Assembly (NCBI GenBank): GCA_965113315.1
Contig: OZ220371.1
From: Podarcis vaucheri
Taxonomy: Eukaryota
Length of the DNA: 64,000 nucleotides
Strand: one strand, 5' to 3'
Shown piece after piece: positions 12,147 through 55,030 of the stretch. A model generated the notes under the pieces. It did not search any database, was not told the DNA's origin, and was given only the letters and a program-made list of their open reading frames with translations. The translations under genes were made by a program, and so were the position numbers. The first letter of the stretch is position 1. Each line of letters begins with the position of its first letter.

Positions 12147-12931
12147 TTTTGTTGTTGGCATCTGTCTGTCTCAAGAGACAATGGAGTGTGCCTCGGGAGG
12201 TGAAGTCAAACCGCTGGGAAATCACGGCACCTGGTGTTACATCAGAGATGGTAACTCATAGTTGCTGCCTCCCGCATTGTTTTTTGCTGAAAGCAGCACC
12301 GAAGTGATATCTCTGGGGTGCAAGCCTGGACCGTGTGTATGGAGGTCCTGGGCTGCCCAGATGACAATATCTCCCTCTCGTCCTCACTGATGTGGTCCAA
12401 AAGAAAGCAGACCAAATACATTTTGTAGCAGCTTGGCTGCAGGAGTTGCCGGAAGGACGTGTACAAGAAGGCATCCAACAGCCTCCGGATTTGTGTAGGG
12501 TTTACTCTTTAGCTTTTTCTTCTCCCAGAGATGTTCCCATGGGGTTTACTCCTGAAGCTGGTGGGGTTTATGCCATATGGTGTGTTAGAGGAGGGGTAGT
12601 ACCTCTGGTGTGGAGGAAGTCATGCTGCTTCTGGAGTAGTTTGTCCACCTTTGATCCTCATCCTGCACTCCACATGTGACAACAACCACATCCCAGCTTC
12701 AAATGGCCAGCTAAACCAGATGAGGGTAGCCAATGGATCTCAGACCCTCCGTGAGTTAGGAACTTTCATTGCATGCAAAGATAGGCTCTGGTGGATTGAG
12801 CGACGAGACTAGTAGTGAGTCCAGCAATAAAGAAGGGAAGTGAGGAGCAGATGGGGCTTGTCAACCTGGGAAGGTAGCCCATCTAGGTGGAGGAAAGATC
12901 TGATCCTAAAATTCTACTGCCTTGTGGCCTG
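12147..12931 (-). mobile_element. Non-autonomous RTE-derived retroelement, copy 1, with inverted 5' half
   Basis: 3' half (12147-~12540) on minus with RTE-type end CTCCATTGTCTCTTGAGACAGACAGATGCCAACAAC. 5' half (12563-12927) on plus. Homologous to 19442-20120 and 48383-48890. 8-bp TSD GTAGGATT (12139-12146, 12932-12939). Confidence 0.85.
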
Positions 12932-17334: not shown

Positions 17335-17678
17335 GGGGACGCGGGTGGCGCTGTGGGTTAAACCACAGAGCCTAGGACTTGCCGATCAGAAGGTCAGTGG
17401 TTCGAATCCCCACGATGGGGTGAGCTCCCATTGCTCAGTCCCTGCTCCTGCCAACCTAGCAGTTCGAAAGCACAATGCAAGTAGATAAATAGGTACCACT
17501 CTGATGGGAAGGTAAACGGCATTTCTGTGTGCTGCTCTGGTTTGCCAGAAGCAGCTTAGTCGTGCTGGCCACGTGATCTGGAAGCTGTACGCCGGCTCCC
17601 TTGGCCAGTAAAGCAAGATGAGCGCCGCAGCCCCAGGGTCAGGCACGACTGGACCTAATGGTCAGGGGTCCCTTTACC
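17335..17678 (+). mobile_element. Sauria SINE (tRNA-derived head, BovB-related tail)
   Basis: GGGACGCGGGTGGCGCTGTGGGTTAAACC head, B box GGTTCGAATCC, ACCTTT-type tail. 12-bp TSD TATATGTGCAGA (17321-17332, 17679-17690). Confidence 0.96.
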
Positions 17679-18212
17679 TATATGTGCAGAAGCCTCTGGG
17701 TAAATTAAGATGGTGGGTGCCTGGGGTCTGCCCTTTGCATTATGCCCTAGACTTTGGGAGCTTGAGGCTCACAGGGGAAGTAGGCAGTGTTCAGCCAAGA
17801 GTCTAAGACAAACAGAGAACACAAAGGACCTGGACCAGCTCCAAAGGGCCCTGCTAAGGCAACTATTACAGTAGTTGTTGTCTTTGCAAGCAGCTAGAGA
17901 CAACTGAAGCTTTGTGTATGCTGACCAGACCTGTAGTATGCTAGGTTCTGCTTCCCTGGAGGAACTGAATGGTTAGTTAAAAGTTCTTCACTATTTTTTT
18001 GTAGTATTTGACTTCTTAAGGCTGAGGAGACAGTGATACCCCAGGGGAGCCATTATCTCATTCAGAGGATGGCAACTGAAGTGTGTCCTCCAGTTGGAAG
18101 GGCCATGAATAAGGTACTGGTGGTTCTGCTCCCAAGGAAGCAGCCTGAACCTCATCCTTATCAGAGTCGTCCACTATGCACTGCAAGGTCTCTAGGTTAC
18201 GGGATGATGATG

Positions 18213-19441: not shown

Positions 19442-20120
19442 TTTGTTGGCATTTGTCTGTCTTGAGAGACAATGGGGTGCGCCTCCAGCGGTTAAGTCAA
19501 ATCACTGTGTTAGCAGCAGCAAAGTGACCTTGCCAGGGCACAAGCCTGGGCAGTGTGTATGGAGGTCCTGGGTGGTCCAGATGACAAGACTCCCTCCCCT
19601 ACTTCAGCCACGCTGATGGGGTCCCAAGGAAATCGGAGCAATATGTTTGGCACCAGCTTGACTGTGGGAGTTGCAAGAAGAAGGTGTACATGGCCCCATC
19701 CCACTGCCTTAGGGACTTAATTCTGGATTTGTGTAGGGCTTTACTCCCGCAAGGTAGTGAAGTTTTAGGACCAGGGTTTTCTTTTTTCCTAGATGAGCCT
19801 CATTTGCCCCTCACTTCTCCCTATGGCATGTGCAGAAACCACCTTCTTGACCGCTCAATACACTGGAGCCTTTTTTCACATGCAGGGGAAATTCCTAACT
19901 CACTCAGGGTTTGAAGCCCATCAGCTACTCTCACTTGGCTTAGCTGGCCAGTTGAAGCCATTCCCGGGATGTGGCCACTGTCACGTGTTGACAGCTCCTA
20001 GGTGTCAGAGGTGAGAACTGAGTGCAAGGTGGGGACCAAAGGTGTTCAAACTACCCCAGATAGAGCATGCCATATTCTCCACCAGAGGTACTACCTCTCC
20101 CCTAACACTGCATACACCCC
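19442..20120 (-). mobile_element. Non-autonomous RTE-derived retroelement, copy 2, retaining both ends
   Basis: 12-bp TSD AAATATGCTTTA (19430-19441, 20121-20132). RTE-type 3' end ..CATTGTCTCTCAAGACAGACAAATGCCAACAAA. No RT ORF. 5' end begins GGGGTGT. Confidence 0.9.
19928..20120 (-). ncRNA. Predicted HDV-like self-cleaving ribozyme at the element 5' end (decayed copy)
   Basis: P1 GGGGTGT/ACATCCC (7 bp), GG after P1, P2 TTCTCAC/GTGAGAG, P4 TGGC/GCCA, J4/2 GCTAA, all in HDV order. G1 abuts the TSD. Confidence 0.7.
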
Positions 20121-20382: not shown

Positions 20383-20674
20383 ATTATGCTGTAGCTCTTC
20401 TTCTGGTACTGTCAGGAAATAGGAGTATATGGGCCTTTTGTTTCAAGCTTCTGCTGCTGGAAATGAGCTTTGGGGCCTAGTTCATGGTTCACACTACCAT
20501 CAATACAAAAAACAGAATTTCAGTCTCTGTGAAACGATTAAAAGTGGAGGAAAGGAAGACAAGGTAAGAACTGGCTATATTAATACATTTAGCCACCTGT
20601 TCTATTTGGTTGGTTCCCTCAGAAAAAATACGCAGCAGGATCTGAACAGACTGATCAGGAAACTGTAACTGTAA

Positions 20675-21017
20675 AAAGGTAAAGGTACCCCGACCATAAG
20701 GTCCAGTCGCAGATGACTCTGGGGTTGCGCGCTCATCTTGCTCTATAGGCTGAGGGAGCTGGCGTTTGTCTGCAGATAGCTTCCGGGTCATTTGGCCAGC
20801 ACAACTAAGCTGCTTCTGGCAAACCAGAGCAGCACACTGAAACACCGTTTACCTTCCCGCCGGAGCGGTGCCTATTTATCTACTTGCACTTGATGTGCTT
20901 TCGAACTGCTAGGTGGGCAGGAGCTGGGACCAAACAACGGGAGCTCACCCCGCTGCCAACCTTCCAATCATCAAGCCCTTGGCTCAGTGGCTTAGACCAC
21001 AGTGCCACCCGCATTCC
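20675..21017 (-). mobile_element. Sauria SINE (second subfamily, B-box region deleted)
   Basis: AAAGGTAAAGGT tail and full body on minus. TSD GTAACTGTAA (20665-20674, 21022-21031). Confidence 0.95.
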
Positions 21018-21934
21018 ATAAGTAACTGTAATACAGTATATTGTTATAAGACCAAACCATACCCTGAGATGATGGGCTTGTATTCATCAGATTTTAATGT
21101 GAATTTGAAGACCACAAGTGTGGCTAGCCATCATGCATCCCAGTTTCTGGTCTAATCAAGGGGGTAAATTTAACAAATTGGAAGGCAAAATCAAATGCAC
21201 ACACGGTGGATTGAGTCAACACAAGGGAAGGATTACTAGTGTGGCCAGTGAGTAGAGGAATTGCAGCTCAAATAAAAGAGCTAATACTCACATGTGTGGA
21301 CTAGGAAGATGACTAGCTGGGCAGGTAGGTGGACATATTTGTTGTAACAACTTAACAACTCTCATGTGGCTTTGGAATTCTTGTTACCGTTTATGAGAGC
21401 TTCTGGGCTGTATCTTGCTCTTTCATGCCTGTGAGTCTGAATCATTAAGCTGCTTTAATACAAAATATCACTTCCTTACTCATCAGTAAGTGCACTTTTT
21501 GTCCTGTTTTGGGTTGGAGTGAGGACAGGTATTTCTCCTTACAATGACTTTTCTGACAAACATTTTATTAAGCTTTTTATTTTATTTTTGTACTTTATTT
21601 AATTGTAGGATTTCTCTCTCTTGTAAGTCCCTTTGTTGGTACTTGAATATTTAAAACAAATAAACATGTGTGTTTGACTAAATGGTGCTAAATTTCATAT
21701 GCATGCAATCATTTGCTACATATTAGGATTATCAAACACTTTTTGCAGAAGCCTAAAGAACTGAAATATTAGATCCAGCAACAAAATGAGCGCTTCTGCT
21801 TCTATTGTATTCTCTCTCACACACTCTCTGTTTCTTTAAACTGAATAACCATTCCATTTTCCCAGTGTATAGTCTTGAAAGAACAATTCAATATCTGTGT
21901 TCTGATTAGGGTATTTGGGAGGAGGAGTTCTTTA

Positions 21935-25901: not shown

Positions 25902-26264
25902 GGGACGCGAGTGGCGCTGTGGTCTAAACCACTGAGCCTTGGGCTTGCCAGTCAGAAGGTTGGCGGTTCGAATCCCTGCGACGGGATGAGCTCCCGTTGC
26001 TTGGTCCCAGCTCCTGCCAACCTAGAAGTTTGAAAGCATGCCAAAGTGCAAGTAGATAAATAGGTACCGCTCTGGCGGGAAGGTGAACAGCATTTCCTTG
26101 CGCTGCTCTGGTTTTGCCAGAAGCGGCTTAGTCATGCTGGCCACATGACCCGGAAAAACTGTCTGCGGACAAACGCCAGATCCCTTGGCCAGTAAAGCAA
26201 GATGAGCACTGCAACCCCAGAGTCGTTCGCGACTGGACTTAACTATCAGGGGTCCCTTTACCTT
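25902..26264 (+). mobile_element. Sauria SINE (second subfamily)
   Basis: Full head, B box and CCTTTACCTTT tail. 11-bp TSD TATAAGCAGTA (25889-25899, 26265-26275). Confidence 0.96.
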
Positions 26265-28866
26265 TATAAGCAGTAGAAGCCAGGAAGACTGCCTTACATT
26301 TCTCAATGGAGTGTTCTAAAGTTGCCCAATGTGTCAGTGTCTATCTGTGAAGGTAAGCTGATCTGGAACTGGCCAGTGCATGTCTCAGGACACCCTTGAA
26401 GCTGGTTGCATAGTCACCAAAGAAAGAGTATGATTCCAGTATAACATAGGTAATGTCCTTTTTGATACCACAACAAAAAGACTGATGCTTCCAAAGTGCT
26501 ACCTTTGTGGTAAGGCTTCATATACAAGATTCTCCACTGATACAGTAAGAGTATGTTTAAAAATTGATTTGACAACTTTCAACTGTCTTTGCTGTCATTT
26601 GAGCACTGACATTTCAATAGGATAATATTGTGGAAAGACAAAAGGTAGTAAAGAAATAAGCAGCCCCAGTAGCTGCTGTTAAAATTATTTTAAAATCATA
26701 GAAAATAAAAATTTAAACCTAGATAGTGTAATTCATTTCATGTGCCTGTAATCTAAGGTTGCCATGTTCATTGCTGGGGTAGCCCAGTCATATGGGTGGG
26801 GTACAAGTAATAATAATAATATTTATATTTATAATAATTTGCATTCCTGTGTTATAACACTGGAATAATTTTTCAGCACTTCCCCCCAAAATGCATTAAT
26901 ATAATAAATATATTGCTTAAGAGTGATTTACAAGCCTTATAGGATACAACCATAAATTTTGAGTTTTCATTTCTAATTATTTACATTGAAACTGTGGAAG
27001 TAACTGTACAATACAGAAAAGCCATTTTGCTTTTATATAGTCACTAGCAATTCTCCAACAAGCTGTAAGATGATATGATTCTAAGCAGTACAGCTACAAT
27101 CCTACTTTGTCAAAAGGTGAGGTTATATTATGTTTTACTTCCTGGGGAAAATATGAGTAAGCAGAAAAGCAATGTCATCCCCTTTCATCTAACACTTTAA
27201 AGTTTAAATGAAGTTATTTTAGAGACCAGCAGAAAAATGACCTTATTCAGCTTTAGAAAGCAGTCTGGAACATAAATTTGTAATAAAATAGCTTTGCCAT
27301 TTTTATTTCCTTTTTCTTTTTGGCCATGCTGGAACCTGGATGTAGTCCACTTGAGACTTTATCTTAAGAGTGCTTTCTTAAGACTAACCCTTATTTAGTA
27401 ATAAAATAAATGTGTTTTATAAAGAAGTGTGGGACCCCCACGGACTTGTTTCTAGCAGCTTGTTGCAAAAAAAACCAAACCCCACAAAACCTTTTTTCTA
27501 ACTGCCGGTAAGAAACTAATTCTCATATGAGATGGAATGTTCTGTCCAATCCTGTTTCACAGTAGCTTTGAGTGCTTGACTGTACTGAAAAGGAAGGGTA
27601 TTATTTGATTGTTCATTGTTACCAGCAGAAGGCTTTCCATTGTCTTTAAATAATAATTGTCACAAAACCTTCTATAGCGTAGTTTCCATTTTGCTTTGAT
27701 CAGTGTGTATGTAGTGTGTAACATCTGTAATAGTCAATCTTGCAGCCCAATCTGGTGCATGTTTGGTAAACCCCATGAAGTTCTACAATACTTTCAGATA
27801 AGCAGGTATAGCATTGTAGACCTTGATCTCTTGTGTGTTGTGGTCATGGATGTAAAATGATTTCCAGATAGACAAATAGAATAATGGCAGTCTTATTCTC
27901 ATTGTGTGTCATTTGAATTGTTCTCGAATAATATTTCTGACACCTTTAAAGAACCAGATTGCAGCAAATGGCTTGGTTTAGATTCTTATTTTGATATGCA
28001 CATGCAAATAATCTTGATGCAAAAGTAAAGAATAGGTGGACGGACCAAATAAATTCTTATAGTCTATGGATTACTTACTGTTATGGTTCTATTTGTTGCA
28101 TCATATAATGTTTACATGCCCCCCCCCGCCCAAATATTTATAGTTACATTTTATCAAATAACATTTTCCCATTCCTACATGTTTATTCTGCCTTCAGAAA
28201 ATACAGGGGGGGAATGCAAAGAACTTGCTTTTAAAGTATGTGAATATATAAGTAGATTTATTTGTTAATGTGGGACCGCTTTCATATAAAATTTTGAGAC
28301 ACTTGTACATCCTTCCTACGAAGACAGATAAAATCCCATAAATTCTTCAATCAAAACTGAGCGAAAGATAAAAGTCTACGGAAATAGACAATATTTATGA
28401 AAGCCCATAAACAACCTTAAAAAACCTTGAGCAACATAAAAATCGCCAGTGCCAATATATAACAGGGTTGGAATTTTCTGGAATAACATTAATTTCTAAG
28501 CGTTTTGAAAATCTGAATAAAAGTTACTTAAATTCATTAGGGTGACCCATGGAGGCAAAGGGGGTGAAGGAGATAAATGTACATTTTGTATGGGTTCTGC
28601 AGTGCTTTGTGGCACTCTGGTACACATAGACAAGCAATTGTCCTTTACAGCTTTGCTATAAAGCTGTTGTTTGATTAAGAGGCGTATATACCATCTCTTC
28701 ATTCTCAAGTGTACTTCAAACTATTCACATTTTCACTGCCGTAATTGTATTGAAATTAATAGTGTTACAGAGGGACAACGAAGCAAAACAAAAAGAAGGA
28801 GATATGCAGTGGTGGTCTAGATCCTAAAACAGCATGAAATTGTCTGGCTGAAAGATTTCAACTGCT

Positions 28867-41069: not shown

Positions 41070-42736
41070 TAAAAGAAAGACAGCAGCCATTTGCCACCCC
41101 ATATCTATTGTGTTAAGCCATGCACACAGAAACACACATAGAGAAAAATATGAGAAAATTTACCCAAATATCACAAAAATATTAAGAGATTGTTTTGCCC
41201 ACCTGAACCCTGAAATGCACATAAGTTTGGGCTGAATACTTTAACCAAGCACTACAATGTACACAAACTTGAAGTTATGTTAATAAGAATTTTTGCTGTG
41301 ACATTGCATACCCCAGGGTTAAATAAAAATGGAATTATAATATTCTTCAATTTTGCTTTTTTCTGGTTGTAGAAATAAATGTTGAGTTTTCATACAGAAT
41401 GCCAGGTAAGGGCTTCACACTTCATAGGAGTAGTTTCCTTGGGGAGGAAAAATCCAAGACAATCTGTGACAATGAGTGTGACTGCCTAGACACAGCAGTA
41501 TAACTAAAATGATGGCATGCATCAGTAGGTCTTCTCTGTGGAAACATCAGTGTGGGCACCATGTACAGGGAGACCTTGGCCATTTTTTGATAGACTGGCA
41601 TAATGGAGTAAGAATTCAAGTATCCGTGTCTATTTAGTAATAGTTTATATTCAGTAATAGTTTATACATAATATATGTTTCCATTTAAGTTTATTGGCTG
41701 TATGTGGTGGTGGTGATTTTTTTTATTTTTTACATCAAATCTTTGTTAAAATATTCACTTATGCAGCAGCTGATTCTAAGTGAATATTTTAACAAAGATT
41801 TGATGTAAAAAATAAAAAAAAAGCTAGCAAAAGTTCCATTGATTAGATAGGCATGAGAAGCCTGTATCCCACTAAATCGTATTGTGGTAGCAATAGAAAG
41901 AGATCTAAATTCAGTTGCAACTTCATATCTCAGTTGATCCAGAATGAGCCATGTCCTTGCTAAGAGGTAGGTGATTTGGAAAATTTTCTTTTTTTCCAGT
42001 AAATCACAGTGGAGGCATACCTCACAATACCTGTCTTGAACATGAGGCAGCTGCAAGGGATGGTTCAGTGAAAATATCCTTCTGCCTTGCCCCACTGGAT
42101 ATTCAGAATAACCAAATAACAGAAGTTCTGAACTTCCTTTCATAGTTATTTGATTTGTTTCACTAAGAGATTATACCCTAACCAAAGAGTATTGAGTTCT
42201 CTTCCTTCTCTGTCTCATCTTATAATCCAGCATTGAACTGGCTGTAGGTCAAAATGTAATGGATGTAGTGTAAAAAGGTTACACCAGGGCAGGAGTTAGA
42301 TACCACATTTTTAAAAATAATAATAATGCCCTTGTTCACTTTATGCTGCTATTTTAACATACATTTTGATTCAGGTAAAGTTCCTTTGCTCCACCACATT
42401 CCCCTTTAAGCAGGCTATACCCTTTCTCAATTCTTCATGCTTCTCTGTAATTCTTTGAAATATTTTAATAGTATGCCAGTTAAGAAGCATAGTGGACGCC
42501 TTTGCAGATACCTACCTGAAAGTTACACATGGGAGTATGAAAAACTATAAAAAATATTTTCAAAACATATAATAAAGTAAAACATTGGAGAATGGCCATG
42601 GTACCATAGGGACATCTTGTGTCTCTCATTCCCCATAGTTCAGACCAAAAGGCGCATTTGGAACTAGCAGGCCAGATGCAATCTTATTCTCCTTCTCTTT
42701 CCTTCCAACTGCTTTCCCTTTTCCTATTAGTGTATA

Positions 42737-43092
42737 AAGGTAAAGGTAAAGGGACCCCTGACCATTAGGTCCAGTCGTGGCCGACTCTGGGGTTGCGGCG
42801 CTCATCTCGCTTTATTGGCCGAGGGAGCCGGCGTACAGCTTCCAGGTCATGTGGCCAGCATGACTAAGCCGCTTCTGGCAAACCAGAGCAGCGCACAGAA
42901 ACACCGTTTACCTTCCCGCTGGAGCAGTACCTATTTATCTACTTGCACTTTGACGTGTTTTGGAACTGCTAGGTTGGCAGGAGCAGGGACCAATCAACGG
43001 GAGCTCACCCCGTCACAGGGATTCGAACCGCCGACCTTCTGATCAGCAAGTCCTAGGCTCTGTGGTTGAACCCACAGCACCACCTGTGTCCC
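42737..43092 (-). mobile_element. Sauria SINE
   Basis: (AAAGGT)n tail and full body. 11-bp TSD ATTAGTGTATA (42726-42736, 43093-43103). Confidence 0.96.
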
Positions 43093-43120
43093 ATTAGTGT
43101 ATATGTGTGTGTTATTACCA

Positions 43121-48382: not shown

Positions 48383-48890
48383 TGTTGTTGTTGCCATCTG
48401 TCTGTCTCAAGAGACAATGGAGTGCAGCCCCGGAGATGAAGTCAAATTGCTGCATTAGCAACACTGAAATCACTACCCCGGAGCACAAGCTTAGGCAGTG
48501 TGTATGGAGGTCCTGGACTGCCCAGATAACAATACCCTCTTCATCAGCCATGCTGATGGGGTCCAAAGGAAAGCAGAGCAATCGGTTTGCCACCAGCTAG
48601 ACTGCAGGAGTTGCCAGAAGAAGGTGTACAAGGCCCCATCCAACAGTCTTAGGGACTCCACTCCTGATTTGTGTAGGGTTTCCTCCTTAGCTTTTTCTCC
48701 TGAAGATATCCTGCAAGGCAACAAAGGTTAAGGATCTGAGAACCCTTACCTGGTTTAGCTGGCCAGTCTAAGCTGTTTACCAGGATGTGACTGCTGTCAC
48801 ATGCTGACAGCTTCTGGGAGTCACAGGTGTGAGCTGAGTGCAGGATGTGGACCAAAGGTGGACAGCCCAGAAGGAGCTGTCCCCCACCAC
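48383..48890 (-). mobile_element. Non-autonomous RTE-derived retroelement, copy 3 (internal deletion, 5' tip missing)
   Basis: (CAA)n tail and body colinear with copy 2. Retains the best-preserved ribozyme core at 48748-48829. Confidence 0.85.
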
Positions 48891-50455
48891 TGCCAGTACC
48901 TAGTGTAAACCCTCAGAATGCTACAAGGAGGGGGAAGAATTGGACTAGCCAAGGTTCTGCTGGATCCTAAGCCCAGCTATCAGTGATGGACTAGATTTGG
49001 GCCTCTCTGATGTGCTACCCTAGAGCTGATGCACCCGCCCCGCCCCCCACCTCAGAATGTGGGGAAGACACACTACCCTACCTTCTGCTCTGGCCAGCAT
49101 GAGTGGCAGGGCTTCAGATATGATGGTGGCTCTGCTGCTCTGTTAAGCCCCACTGGTCCCTGGTCAGGAGTTAGGATTGCTCCCTAATTTGGTTTGGATT
49201 CAACCCTTTTCTTTTGACCCACTCTAGCTGCTATGCATACCGATTTTGCACCATTAGTGCCACTTTCAGAAGTTATTGTGTCAAGTCTAATGCCATGTGT
49301 AGAGCTCAATGATTATTTCTTTTTTGAAAACTGCTGCAGGTATGTTGTTTTGAACATTCCCAAAGTATTCGAAAAGCTAATGCATTTTGTGTATTATGCC
49401 AGCCTTCTTGCTAACATCTCGGTATTTGACCTCAGCATCTAGGACTATCAAAGCAAATACCATATGAGAGGTCAGTGTGATAATAGATTCTATATCCTCA
49501 GATTTTTTAAAAAAAAAATGTTGTCTACAATTATGCAGTCTTTACAGTATTTAAATTGACTCACAATCTGATTCAAAACATCCACAAGAAAGACTTTCTG
49601 GCCTGAATCCAAAGAACTGTGCAACTAGTTTCACATGCCAAAGAGAACTTTGGATACATTTCCCTTAAACAGCAGCCCCTTATTCCACTTGACAAACCTA
49701 TTTTGAACTGAAGGGTGGTTTCAAGAGTAGTTTGTGACATGTCTGCTATTCATAGGGGCGTGGAACATCAACTGGGCATGCCCAAGCAGTTCTCTGGGTC
49801 CCAGCTATTGGATCAAGTAGGGCTTGCTTCCTAGTAAGTCTTACTTAAGATTTCAGCTTCAGCCCACTGACCTTTCATTATTGTATTCCTAATTATTATT
49901 AAGCCCTCTCACTGAAGCATACAACAATTTTTACTGCACTATTTTTGTCTTTTTAATCTACTGCCTTATCTGTTAAATTACAATTTTAAGGATGTCCCAA
50001 GATCTTACAGAAATTTATATGTGCTTGTGTTGTGTGTACCTTATACTCTTGTGAAGAGTCTATTCTATGTGATACAAAAACTATAGCAATTCAACTTTAT
50101 AGTTGTATGGAAAGTAACATCATTAAGCTCCCTCTGCAAATATTTTTACTGCCATTTAAATTTAGACTCTTGTCATATGTCACATTTGATTTTATTTTAT
50201 CTTTAGGCTAGTGAAAGCATAGCTAAAGGAAACAATCTTGGCTAAGCATGCCTTGAGGGTCCTCTCTGCTTGCTTTCTTCATGCCTTATACTTTTGTCAC
50301 TCAAGCTGCATAGATGCACTCCAATAATTAATAGTAAACCGGGTGGGGAGAAAAAATTATTGGACCCCTTCTTGAGATCTTGTGTATAAAAAGAAAAAGT
50401 TCCCATGAGTGAAGTATATAAGTTAGCTTTTTTCAGGAAAAAGAAAAGGAATGAA

Positions 50456-51555: not shown

Positions 51556-52510
51556 TACTTTAATTGGAAAACAATATTGTGTTCATATTTTTATTAGTAA
51601 ACATATATAAGATCAGTTGTATAACCCCTCCCCCCAATGAAAGAAATTATTTCCCCCACCACTTTTCAGTCAGGCTGGTGTATACTGCTGGATGCATCAA
51701 CTTGAAAGTTTTGCATTATGTAGTCCCTGAGACCTGTAGCTATGTTTGAGCTTAACAGTTGATGGCAACAACTGTTAGAAATTATTTCAAGCATTCTGTG
51801 GTCAGAGGAAATGGTACTTTAAGAAAGTCTATGAGGGTGTCATAGTTGAAACTAATTTTATTTCTACTCCAAAAAGTAAATATGAATATACCATAAATAT
51901 ATGTATACTATATACAAATATATACAAATAAGTGAGTGATATATAATTAAGGACCATAATTAATGTAGCACTTTTAACTTGGAAAATATTTACATTTGTT
52001 GTGTTGCTTTTTTGTTCCCATTTTATGGAGAGAGAATTGAGGCTGCGGGAGAACGATTTGGCTAAATAACTCTCTTGCCAGCTTACACACTAAATCAGCG
52101 GCTGGATAATATTTTTCACTCAGTTTATCTACTCTGTCTTTCCATCATGGATGTTATAGGCAATTACCTTATAGTATAATATTTGACAGTAGATCCTGAG
52201 AAAGTGAACGTAATTCCATTGATTAAATTTAACAAGGTTGTGTAAGTGGCCATTGGGGAACATCTACCAGTGTTAAGGATTCTTCACAATAACTCAAGTG
52301 TGGGCAGGGGGAGCTGAAGCATTTCATATCAGAAGATTGTACATGCCTGTTTTACTGTAGGTCCTGGGAACCTGCTGTCAGTCATAGTTTTCCAATAAAA
52401 GTGTGTATGATAAATAGACATATGAGCAATCGTCTCACATGAGATGGACATGAGCATGGGATCCTCACACCTGTGTCCATTGCAGACTACTGTAATGTGT
52501 GATATACCTT

Positions 52511-52870
52511 AAAGGTAAAGATAAAGGGACCCCTGACCGTTAGGTCCAGTCACGGATGACTGTGGGGTTGCGGCGCTCATCTTGCTTTACTGGCCGAGGG
52601 AGCCGGCGTACAGCTTCTGGGTCATGTGGCCAGCATGACTAAGTTGCTTCTGGTGAACCAGAGCAGCACACAGAAATTCCGTTTACCTTCCTGCCAGATT
52701 AGAAATAGCGGTACCTATTTATCTACTTGCACTTCGTGCTTTCGAACTGCTAGGTGGGCAGGAGCAGGGGCCAAGCAACAGGAGCTCACCGTGTTGCGGG
52801 GATTCGAACCGCTGACATTCTGATCGTTAAGCCCTAGGCTCTGTGGTTTAACCCACAGCGCCACCCGCAT
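52511..52870 (-). mobile_element. Sauria SINE
   Basis: Tail AAAGGTAAAGATAAAGGG and full body with a short internal insertion (ATTAGAAAT). Probable TSD CCTTAAAG (52507-52514, 52879-52886). Confidence 0.95.
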
Positions 52871-55030
52871 TAGGATTCCCTTAAAGACAGTTTGGCGACT
52901 GATAAAGAATTTTGCTGCCAGCTTATTGATGCATGTGGATAGGGGAGAACATACCGTATCTATTCTGAGTTATCTGCATAAGCATTAGCTAAAGTTGTTT
53001 TAGGCAAATTTTTATAGTAAGTACAGAGCTTTAAATCCTTTACATGCCTCAGGTCTCAAGCATCTTAAACTCCCTAAGGTTTTAAGAATGGCCACTGTTA
53101 CCTTCCGATAGGTATTGTTTCTAGGAAGGCAATGATATCTTACTTGATGAAGGTACTTTTCTATGGTGACCCCAGAGCTATGGACGTTTCAGTAGGTTTC
53201 TCCTTGATTTATTTTTTGGTAGCAGGTTAAATTATGTTTAATCCACTGGGCATTTGGAAACTAGGTGTAGATATTTTACTGTAGGTTTTTGGTACTTTTG
53301 AATTATGGTTTTATACTGCTTAAATTTGATATACATTATATTTCTTGTTTCTAGCTTCTGTAAACCACATTGTTTACCACATTTTTAAAAAGAAATATGT
53401 AATTAATATGAAATTGCAATGACTAAAAATTTTGAGTGCAGCATACTTAAGAAATTACCATTGCTATGTACAAAGCCTTGCTCAGTTAATAGTAGCAATA
53501 GTATAGTGGTGGTGATGTATGACAGCACGAGGATCACTTGGATCCCTCCTGCCCCAGGCAATATGTGGACTCTGTCAAGTTGGTTCTTTTATGAGTCCAT
53601 AGTAAAGAGGGTCAATGCCTGGGTGAAACTAAAGTACCATGCTTTCACTAGAGGTCAACCTCATCTAGAGCATTGGTTTATGCAGTGGAACACAAACTAA
53701 TGTAGCAGAAAAGCATGACCCCCATTTAAAGGTTGATTTGTATGATAATCAGTACATTCAGTGGCTCCAGAATGGATGCATGTAGGACCCTAGTTTGCCT
53801 TAATTAAGGTAATTAAGACATATTTCTCATTGCAGACAGCCATTTAATTTTAGAGCTTAGTCAGTGATCTGAGTAGAATATTTGTTTTGCTAATTTATGG
53901 CCAAGCAAACTAAATTTCTCAAAATACCCATGGCAGCTTAGTAATATTTCTTTGTAAGCATGTTTTATTTATTTTTTAAAAGAAACTTATCATATTTCTC
54001 TCTTAATGCAGTAAACTGGAAATACCTGTACAATGAAAGCTGCAGCTACAGTTTTGTTATATTTGACCTCAAAATCAAAAGACCCATTTACTAATTTATT
54101 AATGGGCTACTGACAGGGCACTGCAGCATAGCTGAAAGATTTGATTTTAAACTGATTTACCTATTTAATTGGCTTAGATCCTAGTACTTTATTTTGATGA
54201 TATTGTGGATCAGTCTGCTTTGTGAGATGTTGAGAGATAAATTGGGGCTTAAGTTGTAAACATTTATTTCCCATTAAATCTGAATGTTCTACCTGCCACC
54301 CCCCATTTTTAAAATAGAAAAAGATAACTAGGTTTATTTTCCTATGGCTTTTCTAGGATTTTTCTGCTTAATGAAAATTCAGAGTCTATAGTAACTTCAT
54401 GCAATTACAAGATCTTCAGGCAGGCTGAAAGATTTTTTCAGCTGTCGTTAGGCACAAATGGATACCTGCCCTGCCTCCCAAATATAAGAAAATAGCAGCA
54501 GCAAAGTACAATTAGTAAGTTGAGGGGGTTATCTTTGGAGAGCCTTTGAGTAACCTGATACTACGCTGATCTGCTAGAATGCTCTCAGACTGCATGGCAA
54601 ATATGCCCCCAAAGGCAGAGGCTAAAGGGGAGGCAGAAAAATGACCTAACTCTGCTGTATTTTCCAGAGGAAGTCCTAAATGACTGTTCAGCCTGATCCA
54701 GCTCAGGGATAAAAACCATGGAGCTAATTGTAGGAAGAACAAATGGGAATTGTAACTGTCACATTATGGCCAGCCAATAAGATTGATGGAGCAACTGAAA
54801 CACCCCCCTTCTTCTTTTTTTAATATCATGCTTTCTTCTTATCCACAGTAATGCACAGAACTTGCTCTTTAACTCCCACCCAGTCAACCTCTTATCTAAC
54901 TATCCTCAACCACATCTTGACGCATACCCCCAAAGCAAACTTAGTGGTTAGAAACAATTTCCTCGGATATGAGTTGTATTTCAGTGCCATTTGACAAGCA
55001 TTTTTTTAATGCACTTGAGTACCTTTAAAA

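Follow-up and report, generated by a model that had tools for sequence, protein, structure and literature searches.

The window analysed here is a 64,000-nt stretch of Podarcis vaucheri DNA (contig OZ220371.1). A self-search revealed three copies of one repeat in it, at 12149-12802 (rearranged), 19443-20120 and 48383-48900, which we call copies 1, 2 and 3. Their features, with the parts of an HDV-like ribozyme head marked in copy 3, are as follows.

48383..48900, minus: copy 3, from a bipartite non-autonomous RTE element of ~735 bp in its full form; 5'-truncated (starting at element position 26), with an internal deletion directly after P2 and a (CAA)n tail
48834..48900, minus: what is left of J1/2 (in the family a 96-nt domain with a predicted long hairpin); the P1 5' strand is absent from copy 3
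48823..48833, minus: P2 5' strand (copy 3 keeps 9 of the 11 bp of the family)
48820..48822, minus: P3 5' strand (GAC in copy 3, GGC in the family)
48812..48819, minus: core part of L3, with U20 at 48819, the CC of P1.1 at 48818-48817 and the G25 equivalent at 48814, then AA
48793..48811, minus: inserted hairpin (6-bp stem and 7-nt loop in the founder; 7 bp in copy 3 via CpG decay)
48789..48791, minus: P3 3' strand (GTC in copy 3, GCC in the family)
48780..48788, minus: P1 3' strand (48788-48782) and the GG of P1.1 (48781-48780)
48760..48775, minus: P4 (4 bp in the family; two pairs broken in copy 3)
48755..48758, minus: J4/2, with the equivalent of catalytic C75 at 48758, plus AA
48743..48754, minus: P2 3' strand, with one bulged C
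48383..48445, minus: 3' end common to the RTE LINE of the same genome, and (CAA)n tail
19443..20120, minus: copy 2, reaching the 5' end, with G1 at 20120 adjoining a 12-bp target-site duplication
19995-19977, minus: hairpin of copy 2
12149..12802: copy 1, with its 3' part on the minus strand (12149-12523) and its 5' part inverted on the plus strand

The Copies in the Window

The preliminary description had placed an HDV-like ribozyme with a hairpin in L3 at 48748-48829 on the minus strand, and both the letters and the coordinates of copy 3 agree with it, including the CC/GG of P1.1. L3 of copy 3 runs from 48819 to 48792 (28 nt), its core register being fixed by the relative L187 described below, and the hairpin arms are GCTGTCA (48811-48805) and TGACAGC (48799-48793). 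This hairpin is above chance, with 2 of 20,000 shuffles of the 22-nt insert folding as well. Copy 2 was said to carry the same stem, and it does, although its U20 is changed to A and its P3 has a mismatch. In copy 1, a ~30-nt deletion takes out the P2 5' strand, the P3 5' strand, the L3 core and most of the 5' arm of the hairpin. The middle segment of copy 1 is longer than in most copies.

On the other hand, copy 3 as a whole is not intact: its P1 5' strand is missing and two of the four P4 pairs and two of the 11 P2 pairs are broken. The GAC/GTC of P3 is right for the letters of copy 3 but is not a family trait: it is private to this one decaying copy, on which ground we did not count it as a compensatory change. 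The ~670 nt upstream of P2 in copy 3 contained no perfect P1 partner and three candidates matching at 6 of 7 positions. With the P1 5' strand gone, the double pseudoknot of P1, P1.1, P2 and P3 is incomplete. Copy 3 is consequently predicted to be dead, a truncated relic, and likely has no function in the window.

Could the HDV-like look of the locus be the coincidental look of a GC-rich repeat, and the hairpin ordinary local structure? An Rfam scan of the window gave no HDV-family match at E up to 5, and the 82 nt of the copy 3 ribozyme region fold only modestly better than shuffled sequence (z -2.4; 4 of 200), both of which would fit such a reading. Since the window copies are decayed, the blank Rfam result does not single out the insert as its cause. 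The relatives outside this genome, taken up below, bear on the same question.

The window holds further repeats. A second family of ~350 bp is present in five copies of 77-88% identity (17336-17692, 20672-21023, 25902-26276, 42735-43098 and 52510-52871). At 41722-41814 lies a long AT-rich inverted repeat, possibly a small DNA transposon, which received weak scores from microRNA-precursor models, below the cut-off. At 48400-48450 (minus; element position ~650-690), arms flanking the junction of the 5' and 3' parts of copy 3 can pair over ~7 bases; a helix across this junction was set aside because the check was circular, the arms having been chosen by pattern.

The Element Family in the Genome

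The 21-nt J4/2-P2 motif has 391 exact matches in the 1.6-Gb genome, compared with 0 for the reversed control, and a first look gave 2057 candidates for the region. Full copies are ~735 bp long and end in (CAA)n; among 30 copies chosen through their 3' end, most have a truncated 5' side. Decayed LINEs end in the same last ~60 nt. The frame left in these LINE remnants finishes in a small Cys/His motif and matches single-ORF proteins of ~1045 aa, endonuclease plus reverse transcriptase, at 37-44% identity; Pfam gave nothing above the cut-off for the four LINE fragments searched. From its architecture and motifs, we take the LINE to belong to the RTE clade.

Loci L284-L298 carry the same UTR continuing into an endonuclease frame, and one of them, L291, has the hairpin ribozyme head, the UTR, the start of the frame and the 3' end in order. 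The 5' part of the family aligns in the same order with the UTRs of L187 and L260, and also with L291, L284 and further loci in which the sequence continues into the endonuclease frame. As L291 runs from the hairpin ribozyme via the 5' UTR into the endonuclease frame, the parent LINE carried the ribozyme; the element itself, given this continuation of its UTR in L284-L298, is an internally deleted RTE. Marks of a bipartite non-autonomous RTE element were found: a part from an RTE 5' UTR, a shared 3' end with a microsatellite tail, truncation, and target-site duplications, the last in 9 of 39 two-ended copies, with all junctions at positions 0-7. The family may already bear a name in Repbase or Dfam.

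Other LINEs of the same genome were noted alongside. Two decayed, near-full-length RTE LINEs of a second lineage (L178, G000:C41:9163000-9169000, and L179, G000:C25:106839800-106845800, G000 being the genome of this lizard) have a protein closer to that of L260 and a different 5' end; their 5' ends gave no HDV-like match and bear no such ribozyme head. A further group, presumably of the BovB type, consists of near-identical LINEs whose open frames measure ~1036 codons (e.g., L182-L185; ~40 copies among the matches listed). The 5' regions of four of these, scanned with the model described below, gave no HDV-like match.

The Ribozyme Core and the L3 Hairpin across the Family

The family was sampled at 60 loci picked by motifs outside L3. 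After five duplicates were dropped, 55 remained, of which 18 were left out for want of homologous flanks, leaving 37 scored copies. L3 was 28 nt long in 35 of them and 27 nt in the other two, which establishes the hairpin-containing L3, as had been suggested from the window, as a feature of the family. An L3 of 7-8 nt was found in none of the 37 copies, nor in L260 (26 nt), and it was found in L187.

The preliminary description would have been undone by a family consensus lacking the hairpin. A CpG-aware family reconstruction forms it in full (6/6 pairs), together with P1 (7/7), P1.1 (2/2), P2 (11 bp), P3 (3/3, GGC/GCC) and P4 (4/4). Judged by sequence complementarity, the double pseudoknot in the order P1, P1.1, P2, P3 is present in the reconstruction, L260 and L187. 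Among the 37 copies, U20 is kept in 36, G25 in 33 and C75 in 36, the C75 count being partly fixed by the search motif in 18 copies; U20, G25, C75, A78 and a purine G1 are all present in L260 and L187. The hairpin of the reconstruction was equalled by 149 of 20,000 shuffles. In nested folding, P3 and P4 reached pair probabilities of just 0.32-0.39, pseudoknots being outside that model.

Seven positions in the 37 copies show the TG/CA split of a decayed CpG, and three of them change how the window copies are to be read. The seventh pair of the stem lies on such a site (CG 4, TG 17, CA 9 of 37); the 7-bp stem of the preliminary description therefore holds for copy 3, and the founder had 6 bp with a 7-nt loop. 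The last base of P1 lies on another (CG 5, TG 13, CA 13 of 37), so that the first P1 pair of the founder was G-C and the G1-U wobble previously seen there is a product of decay. The base after the hairpin stem lies on a third (CG 6, TG 17, CA 12 of 37), which indicates that the founder had G after the stem. Non-CpG change amounts to 5-16% across all elements (19 copies), an even decay that leaves no visible sign of selection on the genomic copies. Five of 86 copies scored as "core-intact" were not relied on, as that score depends on gap placement.

Taken together, the founder head is, as far as its sequence can tell, a match to an HDV-like ribozyme in every tested respect except the length of L3, and it is predicted to be active.

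Relatives with and without the Insert

Thirteen full-length relatives were aligned, and the alignment led to 76 metagenome loci, from the best 80 of 474 matches. A model built from 29 copies and run on 52 loci matched L260 (82.6 bits) and L187 (53 bits); a single further match was weak and off target. In parallel, 35 metagenome RTE upstream regions (43 kb) were scanned with a descriptor in which L3 was free from 7 to 45 nt. The strict form matched L186, L187 and L260 among the 35 regions, and nothing in three rounds of shuffled sequence; it picks up L260 only at an L3 of 26 nt. The three comprise one long L3 (L260) and two of the canonical 7 nt (L186 and L187). A relaxed descriptor run on 33 regions added L210 and several implausible matches. 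The two heads compared below are:

L260:3572-3773: ribozyme head of L260, with the L3 hairpin
L187:1856-2033: ribozyme head of L187, with the short L3

L187 has the same P1, P3, P1.1 and J4/2 as the family and a canonical 7-nt L3, UCCUAGC. Aligned with the family reconstruction, it shows one clean 21-nt gap directly after G25, which places the insertion point just 3' of G25. L260 has a 26-nt L3 with a 5-bp hairpin, the same tandem start, beginning at the same G as the family, and an open frame of 1096 codons. Relative to the reconstruction, its L3 positions 23-24 differ, G25 is kept and the 7-nt hairpin loop is unchanged; in the stem, one C-G pair has become U-G and both partners of the loop-closing pair are lost. 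Taken alone, this hairpin is weak (-3.1 kcal/mol; 3262 of 20,000 shuffles are as stable). A P4 pair is swapped in both L260 and L187, and a P2 pair in L187. Such covariation supports the fold as an observation rather than a statistical test; it comes from just two sequences outside this genome, of which one carries the hairpin.

These relatives weigh heavily against coincidence. In L187, an RTE begins with a canonical HDV-like motif that is complete and that aligns with the family to either side of the insert, and the descriptor that finds it matched no shuffled sequence. On the strength of L187, the coincidental reading appears already largely refuted, and we consider it very improbable.

How did the two forms of the head come about? 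In protein sequence, LINE fragments of the lizard genome resemble L187 (mostly 40-60%) more than L260 (27-38%), and the L187 and L260 proteins are 44% identical to each other. The downstream UTR and 3' end of the family match L187, and its ribozyme head matches L260. Two histories would give this pattern, a transfer of the head from one lineage to another or a clean loss of the insert in L187, and an exchange of 5' modules between RTE lineages is the likely one. A short L3 is the rule in the HDV-like class, for which reason we would prefer a gain of the insert followed by 5' exchange. Diverged subfamilies in the lizard genome were sought among fetched loci, and a DNA search of that genome with the L187 core gave six partial matches, all in the 3' half and none across the short L3.

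Other HDV-like motifs were seen in the same material. The one in L186:147-490 heads an RTE and lacks P4; its L3 has the canonical 7 nt and its J1/2 ~290 nt. Another RTE relative carries one at its 5' end, L210:31-280, in which L3 measures 8 nt and P1 6 bp. In L187:1890-1925, a short stem in J1/2 opens with the same six letters as the 5' arm of the insert, which may be chance. Pattern scans of viral and prokaryotic sequences gave 1 and 15 matches, respectively, none of them scored with the model; we took these as chance.

The 5' End of the Element and P1

The element starts with two tandem GGGGUGU 7-mers, nine bases apart, and the P1 3' strand is complementary to either of them. When folded without constraints, the sequence places the second 7-mer inside the long J1/2 hairpin and leaves the first free, and L260 folds alike. 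The second 7-mer was ruled out as P1, as it pairs inside J1/2 and no 5' end maps at positions 8-12. The estimated 5' starts fall at position 1 in 11 of the 37 copies and at positions 1-7 in 28, with none at 8-12; because the query used to select 19 of the 37 lay close to the 5' end, these figures are biased towards full length. Starts gathered at or near G1 are what self-cleavage would produce; an internal promoter would fix the 5' end as well.

Could the insertion instead have killed an ancestral ribozyme, the fixed 5' end coming from an internal promoter or from reverse transcription stopping at a stable structure? L3 belongs to the active site (PMC4908430), and the 5' ends are scattered over positions 1-7. 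RNA reads from three runs cover the family and show no pile-up of starts, in libraries poorly suited to that question. These points would fit a dead head. Against it, the whole core (U20, P1.1, G25, C75 and P1-P4) is common to the lizard family and L260 despite the divergence of J1/2, of the loop of P4 and of the downstream UTR; furthermore, L260 combines its open reading frame with the same starting G. We therefore regard a head already killed by its insert as improbable.

Comparison with Known Ribozymes and Elements

Among HDV-like ribozymes, variation is described for J1/2 and P4, L3 being part of the core, and to our knowledge the published descriptors limit the length of L3. Ruminski 2011 reportedly predicted ribozymes for several RTE families.

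HDV-like ribozymes cut before the first base of P1, their core consists of L3 and J4/2, and a stable J1/2 domain with a long P2 accelerates cleavage (PMC4908430). The Anopheles ribozyme drz-Agam-2-1 resembles the family in its place at an RTE 5' end, its 7-bp P1, its large structured J1/2, its core of L3 and J4/2, and its long P2 (12 bp compared with 11 bp in this family) (PMC4908430). The difference from such RTE 5' ribozymes is the L3, which is 26-28 nt long with a hairpin here and 7-8 nt there; the passages of PMC4908430 that were covered mention no insertion in it.

Genomic and antigenomic HDV ribozymes (PMC4227795, PMC3386971) have the same U20, C21-C22/G38-G39, C75-N-A-A and order of P1-P4, and G25 lies five bases after U20 in both HDV and the family. 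They differ in that the first P1 pair of the family is G-C rather than G-U, position 24 is A, J1/2 is 96 nt long, and 22 nt separate G25 from the P3 3' strand, compared with 1-2 nt in HDV. The HDV active site contains the U20-G25 pair, residues 25-27 being poorly ordered with fragmentary density (PMC4227795). In antigenomic HDV, the nucleotide that follows G28 (equal to G25) is one of the least conserved; it bulges out and is accessible (PMC3386971).

RTE 5' ribozymes and bipartite RTE derivatives are themselves known already (PMC5786205, PMC6765202). RTESINE2, WALLSI3 and MAR4_MD likewise join an RTE 5' end or UTR to the last ~60 nt and a microsatellite tail, lack a coding frame and occur as 5'-truncated copies (PMC5786205); they are a different family in a different host.

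A helix in L3 was not found in the HDV-like ribozyme literature that full-text coverage reaches, with Ruminski 2011, Webb 2009, and Webb and Luptak 2011 lying outside that coverage. The passages covered of PMC3774820, PMC6765202, PMC9901934, PMC1874588, PMC4870747 and PMC10879173 mention none, their descriptors sitting in figures and supplements. The present analysis contributes the exact site of insertion and a natural pair of heads, one having the insert and the other lacking it.

Discussion

Of the structural variant first proposed for this locus, the L3 helix at an RTE-derived head is borne out by the alignment and the homologues; the stem length, the wobble and the intactness of copy 3 are not. 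The reading that we favour, and consider probable, is that of a decayed RTE-derived head whose founder was an HDV-like ribozyme with a tolerated 6-bp L3 hairpin, self-cutting at the first G, and of which copy 3 is a remnant predicted to be dead. A host read-through transcript would enter the element, and the double pseudoknot would fold. The J1/2 hairpin is predicted to occupy the second GGGGUGU, and the first would then pair as P1. By analogy with the HDV family, C75 would cleave 5' of G1 and release the element RNA from the upstream host sequence, and the RTE LINE protein would presumably copy this RNA through the 3' end that the two share.

Why would a hairpin be tolerated beside the active centre? 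Projecting into the solvent from the bulged position after G25, it would leave U20, P1.1 and G25 in register, and for that reason we see it as tolerated rather than catalytic. An insert at the bulged, weakly conserved base after G25 would likely be carried without shifting the core.

Alternatively, the hairpin might attenuate the ribozyme: a cis U20-G wobble would lengthen P3 and the hairpin would stack on it, keeping the head inactive until something such as the RTE protein or the order of folding released it. In both lineages with the hairpin, this wobble, formed with the G after it, is predicted to gain 2.4 kcal/mol over the open loop; it would compete with U20-G25 and might slow the ribozyme. 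The minimum-energy folds predicted for L260 and copy 3 have the closed form, and the G between hairpin and P3 is retained in both hairpin-bearing lineages. The 7-nt loop, too, is identical in L260 and the reconstruction even though L3 positions 23-24 differ, but this identity may just reflect recent common descent of the 5' module. Nearest-neighbour energies, moreover, omit P1.1 and tertiary contacts, and we know of no partner that binds the L3 hairpin. On balance, attenuation seems unlikely, although less so than a head killed by its insert.

A bolder form of the favoured reading, in which a tolerated hairpin would be the mark of an active HDV-like subtype, can be held tentatively. L3 would then be a third, so far unreported site for a peripheral domain. 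The head would be a mobile 5' module, passing between RTE lineages with proteins just 44% alike, and its conserved 7-nt loop would tune cleavage or bind the RTE protein. Searches for a short L3 would have overlooked an entire group of these ribozymes in animal genomes. If that is true, L3 would be usable for aptamer insertion.

L187 and L260 form a ready natural pair, nearly identical but for the insert, which makes the question directly testable. If the hairpin form cleaves, the definition of the HDV-like family and its search descriptors would need widening, and the position after G25 would be a natural engineering site beside the active centre. If, on the other hand, it does not cleave, RTE elements can spread with a disabled ribozyme head.
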